In this document: positions 2,496-31,018 of the stretch, piece after piece
How positions within the stretch are numbered: position 1 is the first letter of the stretch
Layout: each line of letters starts with the position of its first letter
Source of the DNA: an uncultured Acidobacteriota bacterium
Lineage (GTDB): Bacteria > Acidobacteriota > Thermoanaerobaculia > Multivoradales > SZUA-115
NCBI GenBank assembly: GCA_963805975.1
Contig: CAWDVR010000002.1
Location: forward strand, 1,056,001-1,120,000
Reading direction: 5' to 3'
DNA length: 64,000 nucleotides
The notes under the pieces: generated by a model
The model's database searches: none
What the model saw: the letters and a program-made list of their open reading frames with translations, nothing else
Told to the model about the DNA's origin: nothing
Translations under genes and position numbers: made by a program

Positions 2496-4049
2496 ATGGG
2501 TCAGTCGCCCACCACGGCGCCGAGCGAGGGCATGAGCGGAACGCACGACGAAAGCGGTCCGATCGCGGGCCGAACCAGCCAGACGGCCGAGATCTCGGCC
2601 GATCTGGCTTCCCCCGACCTTCTCGACCCGGTTGACCACCGCGCGCCGCTGATTCTCGGCGCGCCGACCTTCCACGCCATCACCGAGGCGGTAGCGCGGC
2701 CGCTCGAGCGGCCGCCCACGCGCGGCTGGTGGATCTGCTTCCTCACCTCCCTCTCGATGCTGGGCCTTCTGGGCGTCGCCATCGCCTGGCTGTTCTGGGA
2801 GGGGATCGGCGTCTGGGGCCTCAACAACCCCGTCGGCTGGGCGTTCGACATCACCAACTTCGTGTTCTGGGTGGGCATCGGCCACGCCGGCACGCTGATC
2901 TCGGCGATCCTCTTCCTCTTCCGCCAGAAGTGGCGGACCTCGATCAACCGCTCCGCGGAGGCGATGACCATCTTCGCGGTGATGTGCGCATTGATCTTCC
3001 CCGGCATCCACGTCGGCCGGCCCTGGGTGGCGTACTGGATGTCGCCGCTTCCCAACCAGATGGACATGTGGCCGCAGTTCAGAAGCCCGCTGATGTGGGA
3101 CGTCTTCGCGGTCTCGATCTACGGCTCGGTCTCGGCGCTGTTCTGGTTCGTGGGCCTGGTGCCGGACCTGGCCACCATCCGCGACCGCTCGACCGGCCTG
3201 CGGCGCAAGATCTTCGGCGCGCTGGCCCTGGGCTGGCGCAGCTCGGTGCGCCACTGGCAGCACTACGAGAAGGCGTACCTGGTCCTCGCCGGGCTGGCGA
3301 CGCCGCTGGTGCTCTCGGTCCACTCCATCGTGTCGATGGACTTCGCGACCTCCCAGCTCCCCGGCTGGCACACCACCATCTTCCCGCCCTACTTCGTCGC
3401 CGGCGCCATCTTCTCGGGCTTCGCGATGGTGGTGACGCTGATGGTGATCACGCGCAAGGTGTTCGGCCTCGAGCAGGTGATCACCATGAAGCACTTCGAC
3501 TACATGGCCAAGATCATGCTCGTCACCGGCATGATGGTGGGCTACGCCTACAGCCTGGAGTTCTTCATCGCCTGGTTCTCGGGCAGCGCCTACGAGCTGT
3601 TCACGTTCAAGAACCGCGCCTTCGGGCCCTATGCCTGGGCCTACTGGACGATGGTCTCCTGCAACGTGCTCTCGCCGCAGCTCTTCTGGTTCAAGAAGGT
3701 GCGCTCGTCCCTGCTGTGGCTGTTCGTGCTCTCGATCTTCGTCAACGTCGGCATGTGGTTCGAGCGCTTCGTGATCATCGTCACCTCGCTGCACCGGGAC
3801 TTCCTGCCGTCCTCCTGGTTCTACTTCACGCCGACGTTCTTCGACATCGCGACGATGATCGGCAGCTTCGGCCTGTTCTTCACCATGTTCTGCCTCTTCG
3901 TGCGCTTCCTGCCGATCGTCGCCACCGCCGAGGTGAAGACGGTGCTGCCACAGGCGGCGGCGCATCCGCTGGTGGCGCCGAGGATCGAGCACGACGAGCC
4001 TGCCGTCGTCGGCCGGCGTTCGGATCTCGCCCGAGGAGAAGCCGGCTGA
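2496..4049 (+). CDS. actC: ACIII quinol-oxidising membrane subunit ActC (NrfD/PsrC family), copy 1; start uncertain (2418/2496/2532)
   Basis: [75 protein letters not shown]. Confidence 0.93.
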
Positions 4050-4606
4050 TGGCCCTGTTGCGGCCCAGCCTGCCGGCCGGCGACCGCTTCGGCGCTCTCG
4101 CCGAGTACGCCTCGCCCGCGGCGCTCTACCATGCCTGCGAGGCGGTGCGCGACGCCGGCTACACGCGCTGGGACGCGCACACGCCGTTCCCCGTGCACGG
4201 GCTGGACCGGGCCATGGGCCTCAAGGCCTCGCGCCTCCCTTGGGTGTCGCTCGTCCTGGCGCTCGGCGGCGGCCTGGCCGGCATGGGCCTCCAGGGCTGG
4301 GTGAGCACGACCGCCTACCCGCTGGTGATCAGCGGCAAGCCGTTCTTCAGCTGGCCGGCGTTCGTTCCCGTGACCTTCGAGCTGGCGGTGCTCGGCGGCG
4401 CCCTGGGCGCGGTGTTCGGCATGTTCGCCATGAACCAGTTGCCTACCCTGTACCACCCGCTCTTCGGCAGCGCGAGCTTCGAGCGGGCGAGTGACGACGG
4501 CTTCTTCATCTCGATCGAGTCCTGGGACCCCCAGTTCGACGCCGACCGGACGGTCGAGTTCCTGCGCCGCCTGGGAGCCACCCAGGTCGAGCTGGTCGCG
4601 AGCTAG
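4049..4606 (+). CDS. actD: ACIII subunit ActD (DUF3341), copy 1
   Basis: ATG overlaps the actC stop; DAHTPFPVHGLDRAMG, YPLVISGKPFFSWPAFVPVTFEL; two TM helices. Confidence 0.9.
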   Translation: MALLRPSLPAGDRFGALAEYASPAALYHACEAVRDAGYTRWDAHTPFPVHGLDRAMGLKASRLPWVSLVLALGGGLAGMGLQGWVSTTAYPLVISGKPFFSWPAFVPVTFELAVLGGALGAVFGMFAMNQLPTLYHPLFGSASFERASDDGFFISIESWDPQFDADRTVEFLRRLGATQVELVAS

Positions 4607-4618
4607 GCGAGCCTCCCG

Positions 4619-30300: not shown

Positions 30301-30383
30301 CCGCAGGCCGAGCCGCAGCCGCCGGAGGCCGAGCCCGGCTCACCGCCGGCGAGCTCTTCCGTGGGCTCGATCACCGGTGGCAC
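27305..30383 (-). CDS. actB: ACIII ActB (non-catalytic molybdopterin-fold domain + Fe-S domain), copy 1; frameshifts near 28285, 28005 and 27750
   Basis: HWRSLEQL, Tat-like [74 protein letters not shown]. Confidence 0.9.
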
Positions 30384-31018
30384 CCCGTGCAGTCGAGAGG
30401 CGGTTGCAGGCCCTTGGCCTCCTTGATGAGGGCCGCGGATTGGAGTTGGTCGCGGGGCGGGCTCCAGTCCATGTTCGTCACCTCGTCAGCGGGTCGCAGG
30501 TAGGGGTCGGGGTTGCGGTGACAGTCCAGGCACCAGCTCATGGAGAGCGGCTCGGCCTGCGCCACCTCGTCCATCTGGTCGATGCGCCCGTGACAGGTGG
30601 CGCAGCCGACCCCGGCGCGCAGGTGGGGCCGGTGGTCGAAGAACGCGAAGCCGGGCAGGTTGTGCACCCGCACCCAGCGGATCGGGCGCCCGCTGGTGGC
30701 GCTGTCGCGCACCACCGCCAGCGTCGCGGCATCGCGCTTCACCACGCGGTGGCAGTTCATGCACACCTCGGTCGGCGGCACCACCGCGACCGGCGCGCGG
30801 TCCACCGTGGCGTGGCAGTAGAGGCAGTCGATCCCGAGGTCCCCGGCGTGGAGCTTGTGGCTGTAGGCGACCGGTTGCACCGGCTGGTAGCCGACGTCGG
30901 TGTAGCGCGGGGAGAAGAAGTACCAGACCCCGGCCACCGCCAGGCCACCGACGACGACGCTCGCCGCGGCGATGCGCAGCGGCAATTCGTTGGCCCAGCG
31001 CGGGAAGATCTGCGCCAC
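30371..31018 (-). CDS. actA: ACIII pentahaem cytochrome ActA, copy 1
   Basis: One TM helix, QPVAYSHKLH, five CxxCH (CLYCH, CMNCH, CATCH, CLDCH, CTGCH). Confidence 0.93.
   Translation of the reverse strand: MAQIFPRWANELPLRIAAASVVVGGLAVAGVWYFFSPRYTDVGYQPVQPVAYSHKLHAGDLGIDCLYCHATVDRAPVAVVPPTEVCMNCHRVVKRDAATLAVVRDSATSGRPIRWVRVHNLPGFAFFDHRPHLRAGVGCATCHGRIDQMDEVAQAEPLSMSWCLDCHRNPDPYLRPADEVTNMDWSPPRDQLQSAALIKEAKGLQPPLDCTGCHR

Follow-up and report, generated by a model that had tools for sequence, protein, structure and literature searches.

Genes for an alternative complex III divided between two convergent operons in an uncultured Acidobacteriota bacterium

The DNA analyzed here is a stretch of 64,000 nucleotides (the window) from contig 2 (CAWDVR010000002.1, positions 1,056,001 to 1,120,000) of GCA_963805975.1, the assembly of an uncultured Acidobacteriota bacterium that comprises 5.36 Mb in six contigs, has a G+C content of approximately 70%, and is 96% complete. 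Its subject is alternative complex III (ACIII), usually found and annotated as one actABCDEF cluster. All six core subunits, ActA to ActF, are encoded in the first half of the window in two operons rather than in the usual single cluster. On the plus strand, actC (2496 to 4049), actD (4049 to 4606), and actF (4619 to 5845) are followed by a cupredoxin-like gene, coxA, coxC, coxD, two small genes, and coxB, which ends at 10683. The opposing operon on the minus strand starts with actA (31018 to 30371), actB (30383 to 27305), and actE (27300 to 26629), followed by a bd-like CydA homologue (from 26632), genes for two monohaem cytochromes and a dihaem cytochrome with an EB_dh-like domain, usp, dinB, a GNAT gene, and mrp; a padR/ABC-permease pair, a CxxC/PCP_red gene, and an AhbD-like radical S-adenosylmethionine (SAM) gene form its tail. 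The two halves are labeled ABE (actA-B-E) and CDF (actC-D-F) and the CydA homologue bdL, with suffix 1 for the split copy and suffix 2 for a canonical copy further along the plus strand.

Both junctions at which the usual gene order is broken are tight. Between the end of actD (4606) and the start of actF (4619) there is a 12-bp gap, too small for actE, and on the minus strand 4 bp lie between the end of actB (27305) and the start of actE (27300), so that actD runs straight into actF and actB straight into actE, as the initial annotation of this DNA had described. The stop codon of actE shares 4 bp (ATGA, 26632 to 26629) with the start of the bd-like gene. The same annotation had pointed to the canonical actABCDEF order in copy 2 at 47.9 kb, which was found at 47.9 to 60.8 kb, and had reasoned that one inversion cannot give the split layout; we agree that more than one is needed. 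It had also held that the split follows function, and this is borne out, as the cut coincides with the boundary between the two structural modules of ACIII, ActA/B/E for electron transfer and ActC/D/F in the membrane (PMC5928083).

The best matches of ActC, ActD, ActE, and ActF are chains of solved ACIII. ActC1, the NrfD-type quinol-binding subunit (PF03916), matches 6f0k_C (1e-202), ActD1 (PF11821) matches 6lod_D (5e-50) and also 6f0k_D, ActF1 matches 6f0k_F (7e-97), and ActE1 matches 6f0k_E (1e-60). ActA1 is a pentahaem cytochrome c (PF14522) with five CxxCH motifs, and ActE1 is a monohaem lipoprotein with one CxxCH and a lipobox that is covered by the alignment to 6f0k_E. ActB1 consists of a variant twin-arginine translocation leader, a molybdopterin-like part, and an iron-sulfur (Fe-S) part; the 15 cysteines of the Fe-S domain, ligands for four Fe-S clusters, are kept in 46 of 46 orthologues, the window copy itself being broken by three indels. 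Ten residues have been named at the quinol site of ActC in Rhodothermus marinus ACIII (PMC5928083), and in all 33 orthologue matches ActC1 keeps every one of them (Trp82, Ile86, Phe89, Pro136, His139, Leu166, Asp169, Ser245, Val250, and Asp253, R. marinus numbers). Across the whole genome there are two COX1 and two NrfD genes, all of them in the window, together with a haem A synthase gene; a search for bc1 cytochrome b in the same genome, which is 96% complete, gave no match.

In this assembly, genes of both ACIII halves are interrupted by at least 12 single-base indels, which might point to an assembly artefact or a decaying remnant. The DNA was aligned with that of genomes G001 (same genus) and G013 (another family), and 12 indels were picked from the two alignments as specific to the window: three in actB (approximately at 28292, 28002, and 27746), two in the cupredoxin-like gene (approximately at 6347 and 6414), one in coxD (approximately at 9255), three in the dihaem cytochrome gene (approximately at 21939, 21813, and 21673), two in usp (approximately at 21000 and 21211), and one in the tail of the bd-like gene (approximately at 24776). 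Eleven are seen against both genomes and the one at 24776 against G001 only. As orthologous ActB frames are open in both relatives, the indels are most likely assembly errors. The DNA of the same two assemblies aligns unbroken across 4606 to 4619 and 27300 to 27305, by which misassembly is ruled out for the layout, and the arrangement is not confined to this assembly, the same order being present in 15 other genomes of the order and in 50 of 80 loci elsewhere. Pseudogene decay was likewise rejected, given invariant cofactor ligands and the open ActB frames of relatives. An artefact or remnant is thus extremely improbable. Among public sequencing runs only relatives of this genome were found, with a best share of 0.40 and none at half.

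The distribution of the two halves was followed in an order-level sample of 41 genomes, own genome included, and in a wider sample of the 80 best bd-like loci among at least 509 confirmed relatives in the genome collection. Both adjacencies, actB-actE-cydA-like and actD-actF-cupredoxin-coxA, recur in relatives, and the longer orders A-B-E-bdL-c-c-cEB-usp-GNAT-mrp and C-D-F-cup-coxA-C-D-B recur in the fetched loci. At the level of the order, the bd-like gene occurs in 16 of the 41 genomes, and the ActC1 type (71 to 100% identity) is present in the same 16; ActB without an adjacent actC was found in these 16 and in G007, but not in any of the 24 relatives within the order that have neither the bd-like gene nor a G007-type cluster. 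Among the 80 best loci, 50 show a whole A-B-E-bdL arrangement, nine show B-E or E at a contig end, three are too short, and in 18 the bd-like gene is not directly preceded by an act gene. Most of these loci belong to Acidobacteriota (Thermoanaerobaculia, Vicinamibacteria, and Polarisedimenticolia); within the 80, ABE-bdL also occurs in Binatia and in a deltaproteobacterial bin and is absent from Bacteroidota, Rhodothermales, and Calditrichia loci. The closest bd-like relatives among the matches listed, 91 to 92% identical, are from Thermoanaerobaculia or Holophagales.

The genomes behind 50 of the 80 loci were searched, comprising every locus without ABE (18), the three short loci, and 29 of the 59 loci that have ABE. 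ActC1 type, called in this wider sample at an identity of at least 74%, was found in 26 of the 29 genomes with actABE and in 0 of the 21 without (the short loci being counted among the 21), where the best ActC matches (69% and 66%) lie in ordinary A-B-C-D-E-F clusters. The bd-like protein was also considered as a replacement for ActC, ActD, and ActF, and this was rejected. The initial annotation had described two convergent operons, and the halves are convergent here and on one contig in 23 of the 26 followed genomes that have both. Convergence is not required, as in two single-contig genomes the halves are 2.5 Mb (G014) and 0.7 Mb (G024) apart; proximity is therefore not required either, and convergence as a functional need was rejected. 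Separately, ActC-like genes (60% identity) with no adjoining ActB match at the threshold were noted in two genomes (G015:C1:814127 and G025:C1:4530352), which may be another kind of orphan or have a divergent ActB.

A tree of 94 bd-like sequences was built with FastTree, on which the actABE label needs 10 changes; in five independent starred pairs, CDF changed in the same way as ABE 4.9 times and in the opposite way 0 times. Distances were compared in genomes chosen as having all four proteins (ActB1, ActC1, the bd-like protein, and the oxidase), 27 in number, of which G069 and G088 were dropped to leave 25. ActB1 distances correlate with those of the unlinked ActC1 at an r of 0.876 versus 0.812 with those of the nearby bd-like protein, with a bootstrap interval of the difference of 0.002 to 0.118. 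ABE and CDF travel as a unit, and the bd-like and oxidase operons can stand without both. The oxidase persists in 16 of the 21 bd-like genomes without actABE; at six loci (L199, L201, L203, L204, L210, and L211) it is faced by the radical SAM, PCP_red, and mrp genes with no actCDF before the cupredoxin gene, and at L200 the radical SAM end is visible. The most fitting view of the split is that of a second, optional ACIII: its halves stand at the head of the two operons of an oxidase island, and the island occurs in their absence as well. The proposal that each half carries its own terminal enzyme is weakened accordingly, since the oxidase does not follow CDF but stays by the bd-like operon when both ACIII halves are gone, and the bd-like protein is only a predicted terminal enzyme.

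Hybrid complexes, in which ABE1 pairs with CDF2 and ABE2 with CDF1 under the control of separate promoters, would be conceivable where both copies coexist, as they do in the window and in the majority of carriers; a separate predicted promoter-like motif lies upstream of each half, and ActC1 and ActC2 are 54% identical. If CDF2 served ABE1, however, CDF1 would be dispensable and lost alone, and it instead tracks ABE1. The ActC lineages are also deeply separate, ActC2 falling in a clade of its own (support 100/100), and four genomes (G038, G066, G082, and G088) have only the ActC1 type, although their assemblies may be incomplete. We regard such exchange between the copies as quite improbable.

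One genome, G007, has the same lineage unsplit. Its A-B-E-cytochrome-C-D-F genes form one cluster (L049:3917-11716) on a single contig, and no bd-like match was found in this genome. The ActC of G007 nests among those of split copies (support 98/99), and its ActB pairs with ActB of the split G038 (support 97). The assembly is 9% contaminated, but the six act genes share one contig. There is no oxidase match directly behind this act cluster, and a lysine-less oxidase lies on another contig.

Taken with the solved ACIII structures, the co-occurrence of the halves suggests that ABE and CDF from the two operons probably assemble in trans into one normal ACIII. ActC would oxidize quinol, and electrons would run from the first Fe-S cluster of ActB through the haems of ActA to ActE, as in the solved complex. 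A membrane-anchored monohaem cytochrome c of 190 amino acids (24181 to 24753, minus strand) is the likely first acceptor and would replace the cytochrome c domain absent from CoxB1, because this cytochrome alone stays between actE and actC in G007. From there, electrons would pass to the CuA center of an A1-type oxidase that lacks the K-channel lysine and probably to the bd-like module too; in genomes without ABE and CDF, the canonical ACIII would feed the island. O2 could be reduced by either terminal module, and for the bd-like protein taken by itself the odds of this are about even.

Several observations weigh against assembly in trans. An ActC1 match is missing in 3 of the 29 actABE genomes (G063, G085, and G089), two of which are 3.5-Mb assemblies, and in G085 there is no ActC match of any kind. 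The independent-pairs test, with only five pairs, gives a P value of 0.0625; the difference between partial correlations spans zero (-0.14 to 0.56); and in an approximately unbiased test a tree with G007 outside the split clade is not rejected (P = 0.082). Assignment to the ActC1 type relied on an identity threshold in most genomes, with trees used only where the sequence was fetched, and the 50 followed genomes come without stated completeness. Finally, actB-actE-bdL adjacency is present in 56 of the 80 best loci (50 whole and 6 cut by a contig end), with three more showing actE only. ABE is tightly linked to the bd-like module, and assembly in trans explains this link only as coexpression with an electron acceptor.

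The same linkage, with the actE-bdL overlap and the conserved adjacency, would fit a different role for ABE, that of a detachable wire docking on the bd-like protein, alone or alternating with CDF, much as docking on the same module has been proposed for the periplasmic nitrite oxidoreductase (NXR) of Nitrospira; the bd-like protein would in that case serve as a quinone-linked anchor and not as an oxidase. ActB and the NXR subunits belong to one family, the complex iron-sulfur molybdoenzymes (PMC5928083), and in this genome nothing scored over the cut-off for an NXR-type alpha subunit. Against such docking, however, the bd-like module stands without actABE upstream in the 18 loci noted above, ABE occurs without the cognate CDF lineage only in the three assemblies just named, and G007 keeps ABE with CDF in the absence of a bd-like match. 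A second dock also predicts independent loss of CDF, and none was seen in the tree pairs. Docking on the bd-like protein is consequently improbable. The idea of a detachable ActABE wire came from the initial annotation; docking on CDF is favored by these data, and the bd-like protein as the alternative dock is not, as the genomes whose bd-like module lacks actABE have no orphan ActC either.

Returning to assembly in trans, an electron path that splits at ActA/ActE has been proposed for Flavobacterium johnsoniae ACIII (PMC8552683), and a branched exit therefore has precedent. The branched supercomplex first suggested for this locus can accordingly be kept in part: electron exit to both enzymes is possible, but it would go via cytochromes and not by swapping the membrane anchor. 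A narrower exit is also conceivable within the in-trans model, differing from our preferred explanation only in the exit route, whereby ACIII1 feeds only the lysine-less oxidase and the bd-like module is a separate, coexpressed system (e.g., for detoxification or reverse electron flow). In 8 of the 41 order genomes the oxidase is present and the bd-like gene is not, ACIII-oxidase supercomplexes are established (PMC5928083), and the bd-like module occurs in anaerobic anammox bacteria (PMC6606698); the first haem-ligand histidine is a lysine in 3 of 92 bd-like matches, and the genome has no second CydA. Yet it is the haem-bearing half, not the membrane half, that is fused to the bd-like operon. 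The distances of the bd-like protein and the oxidase also co-vary after ActB and ActC are removed (partial r of 0.57), and G041 holds the oxidase and the bd-like operon codirectionally in one cluster. An exit to the oxidase alone is possible but, on balance, unlikely. More doubtful still is the most extended form of the branched reading, that the island encodes one undescribed assembly in which an in-trans ACIII has a haem wire branching via three membrane cytochromes and the cupredoxin to the bd-like enzyme and the lysine-less oxidase, with haem and Fe-S maturation genes of its own.

The bd-like protein (approximately 620 amino acids; 24760 to 26632, minus strand, end approximate) aligns with solved CydA (5doq_A, 9e-15) over its N-terminal part only, and PF01654 covers profile positions 2 to 240 of 418. 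Solved CydA chains themselves align only to profile positions of approximately 78 to 305, with hydrophobic segments after. In relatives the protein is 66 to 88% identical. Its haem-ligand residue His91, equivalent to His19, is a histidine in 89 of the 92 matches, and Glu178, His252, and Met413 are kept in all 92. The first haem-ligand histidine has been called invariant in the superfamily (Murali, Gennis and Hemp, bioRxiv 10.1101/2021.01.16.426971), and the three matches with a lysine in its place are at L022, L024, and L031 (in G017, G036, and G038). The protein has no CxxCH. By a crude hydropathy scan it has 12 hydrophobic segments, the OR-N2 criterion being approximately 14 transmembrane helices, and single-chain structure models are of low confidence (pLDDT of 51 and 49). 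Atlas neighbours of the protein (at 0.92 to 0.93) are commonest in Nitrospirota. It is the sole CydA homologue in the genome; no CydB family match was found among its neighbours, a genome-wide cydB search not having been made, and neither the adjacent cydB nor the full-length CydA match of a canonical CydAB quinol oxidase was found. By length and gene context, the bd-like protein fits OR-N2 of Murali et al. O2 reduction is described as unproven for the OR-N family (PMC10839748).

Downstream of the bd-like gene and the 190-amino-acid cytochrome gene, the latter also present between actE and actC in G007, the minus strand encodes a second membrane monohaem cytochrome c of 274 amino acids (23312 to 24136) and the dihaem cytochrome c with an EB_dh or haem-b-like domain (21620 to 23315, end approximate), which is alt_NxrC-like, with two CxxCH motifs and with EB_dh and TIGR03477 matches below cut-offs. 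These are followed by a Usp-Usp-PCP_red protein (19406 to 21597), a conserved GNAT acetyltransferase (17920 to 18729), a conserved Mrp/ApbC iron-sulfur carrier ATPase (16928 to 17845; PF10609), a CxxC-containing, zinc-finger-like PCP_red protein (13219 to 13692), and a radical SAM/SPASM protein with a PCP_red tail (11890 to 13215), AhbD/NirJ2-like at 295 of 500 bits, i.e., under the AhbD cut-off, which is the conserved end of the bd-like operon. Judging from family names, all under equivalog cut-offs, cofactor maturation is the likely role of the radical SAM, Mrp, and PCP_red genes. PCP_red tails are found on three genes of the island (twice on the Usp protein and once each on the CxxC and radical SAM proteins), suggesting a docking system among maturation proteins. 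The maturation genes are interrupted by padR and a MacB/FtsX permease gene (13891 to 16866), an insertion also present in G001, and by dinB (18726 to 19289). Between the convergent operons, a lower-G+C open reading frame of 349 amino acids (10769 to 11818) with no Pfam match looks like a recent insertion.

The oxidase encoded behind CDF comprises CoxA1 (6667 to 8466; PF00115), an A1-type haem-copper oxidase subunit I without the K-channel lysine, a short-form subunit III, CoxC1 (8476 to 9066; PF00510), a CoxD1-like subunit IV (9097 to 9408) assigned by its position and conservation in relatives with no Pfam match, two small conserved membrane proteins (9405 to 9602 and 9599 to 9886) with tblastn matches at the same place in many loci and no Pfam match, and CoxB1 (9880 to 10683; PF00116), a CuA subunit II with no CxxCH and thus without a cytochrome c domain. 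In an alignment to 1ar1_A, CoxA1 has a leucine at the position of the Paracoccus K-pathway lysine. In 46 of 46 CoxA1 matches of at least 70% identity, this lysine is replaced by Ile, Leu, or Val and the K-pathway serine by Ala or Gly, with metal ligands and D-channel residues kept; copy 2 CoxA keeps its K-channel lysine. The lysine-less oxidase, which by sequence resembles A1 enzymes and is not a standard member, is present in 24 of the 41 order genomes at an identity of at least 74%. The CoxB1 ligands H-C-Q-C-H-M and the entry glutamate are kept in 35 of 35 matches. The K-pathway lysine and serine are on the route of two catalytic protons (PMC8361435), and K-channel losses have been mentioned for archaeal family A oxidases (PMC8239418). 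The existence of this oxidase family may be a greater surprise than the ACIII split. A very divergent COX1-like gene (28 to 29% identity) was noted after the canonical ACIII in G028 (L050:1533-7175), with several histidine ligands missing relative to CoxA1 and a second weak coxA match downstream of it.

The exported cupredoxin-like protein (5859 to 6625, plus strand), which by Pfam has a CarboxypepD_reg domain, shows a His...Cys-x2-His-x2-Met pattern in 57 of 57 matches and both N-terminal histidines in 56 of 57, from which we infer that it binds copper. A second cupredoxin-like copy lies divergently upstream of actC or actA at L035, L036, L040, and L065.

Promoter-like motifs were picked by eye. 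A predicted extended -10 motif 5' of actC (2406 to 2419, plus strand) is common to the upstream regions of G001, G013, G062, and G064, and a predicted sigma-70-like motif 5' of actA (31129 to 31158, minus strand) resembles -35/-10 pairs upstream of actA in 16 loci. No sigma-70 site was found in a consensus scan of 2200 to 12000, with terminators at chance level only, and no regulatory motif common to the actA and actC upstream regions was seen by eye in 16 and 14 loci, respectively. Haem biosynthesis genes border the island, with hemA at one end (971 to 2356) and hemH-hemY at the other (31217 to 33723), and hemH/hemY adjoin actA or actC in many relatives. The canonical actABCDEF(G)-sco-coxBACD cluster with its A2 caa3 oxidase (copy 2) spans 47915 to 60765 on the plus strand, and 1.8 kb upstream of it a large exported protein with six CxxCH motifs and a cytochrome P460-like domain is encoded (42857 to 46084).

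All parts of the island belong to known families, and the split is real and widespread. A conserved ACIII copy that is cut between its two structural modules will pass for a pair of incomplete clusters. The bd-like (OR-N) module, never purified and discussed mainly for nitrite oxidizers and anammox bacteria, stands here beside a defined candidate electron donor in a genome without an NXR-type match, making its function testable. Genome surveys that count these CydA homologues as high-affinity quinol oxidases may be wrong. The island also points to a widespread family of A1-like oxidases in which the K-pathway lysine is naturally absent, a direct test case for proton supply to the binuclear center. 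Should the branched assembly be true, the bd-like module would be core to ordinary heterotrophic respiration in Acidobacteriota, outside the context of nitrite oxidation, and protons would reach the oxidase by a route that has yet to be described. No account of an ACIII split or of the lysine-less family was found in a search limited to open-licence literature (PMC and bioRxiv); work under subscription on variants of the ACIII gene cluster and the supplementary data on OR-N may bear on novelty.

In comparison with the ACIII of R. marinus (6F0K; Sousa et al. 2018, PMC5928083) and F. johnsoniae (6BTM), and with 6LOD and 8K9E, the split copy has the same six core subunits, five plus one c haems, Fe-S cysteines, and quinol-site residues, with ActC, ActE, and ActF best matching R. 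marinus chains. It differs in being encoded by two operons cut at the module boundary and up to megabases apart, in having actE after actB, in lacking an actG between actF and the oxidase genes, in an ActA without the extra monohaem domain, and in a partner oxidase without a cytochrome c domain. Copy 2, in contrast, matches the acidobacterial ACIII-A2 caa3 superoperon (Trojan et al. 2021, PMC8407424), in the excerpted text of which a split copy, a bd-like module, and the K channel are not mentioned. Relative to the A1 aa3 oxidases of Paracoccus denitrificans (1AR1) and Rhodobacter sphaeroides (1M56), the lysine-less oxidase has the same six histidine ligands, cross-link tyrosine, HPEVY motif, D-channel Asp/Asn/Asn/Glu, Mg site, arginine pair, and CuA, and differs in the replaced K-pathway lysine and serine.

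The bd-like module is closest in kind to a cluster of Nitrospira, Nitrospina, and anammox bacteria described as a bd-like oxidase with two cytochromes c and alt_NxrC_2, the role of which is given as open (PMC6606698, PMC3578206); the same cluster type is TO_1 of "Ca. Manganitrophaceae" (bioRxiv 10.1101/2021.11.15.468770). Shared with it are the N-terminally alignable CydA homologue and, after it, a pair of membrane cytochromes c and a dihaem-c/haem-b-like protein; genes of zinc-finger-like and cupredoxin-like type in the vicinity, as in the Nitrospina list (PMC3578206); and, as in OR-N2 of Murali et al., a single CydA. Here, however, no NXR-type enzyme was found, actABE heads the module, usp, GNAT, mrp, and radical SAM genes lie behind it, and a haem-copper oxidase is linked. 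An ACIII set directly upstream of a bd-like reductase is also known from the actABCDE genes with OR-N5 CydAA' in Nitrospirales (PMC12342949) and from TO_3 of "Ca. Manganitrophus". There, actC and actD have stayed with the other act genes, actF is lacking, and a two-subunit OR-N5 acts as partner, whereas here actC, actD, and actF lie elsewhere and a single long CydA homologue takes the partner's place.

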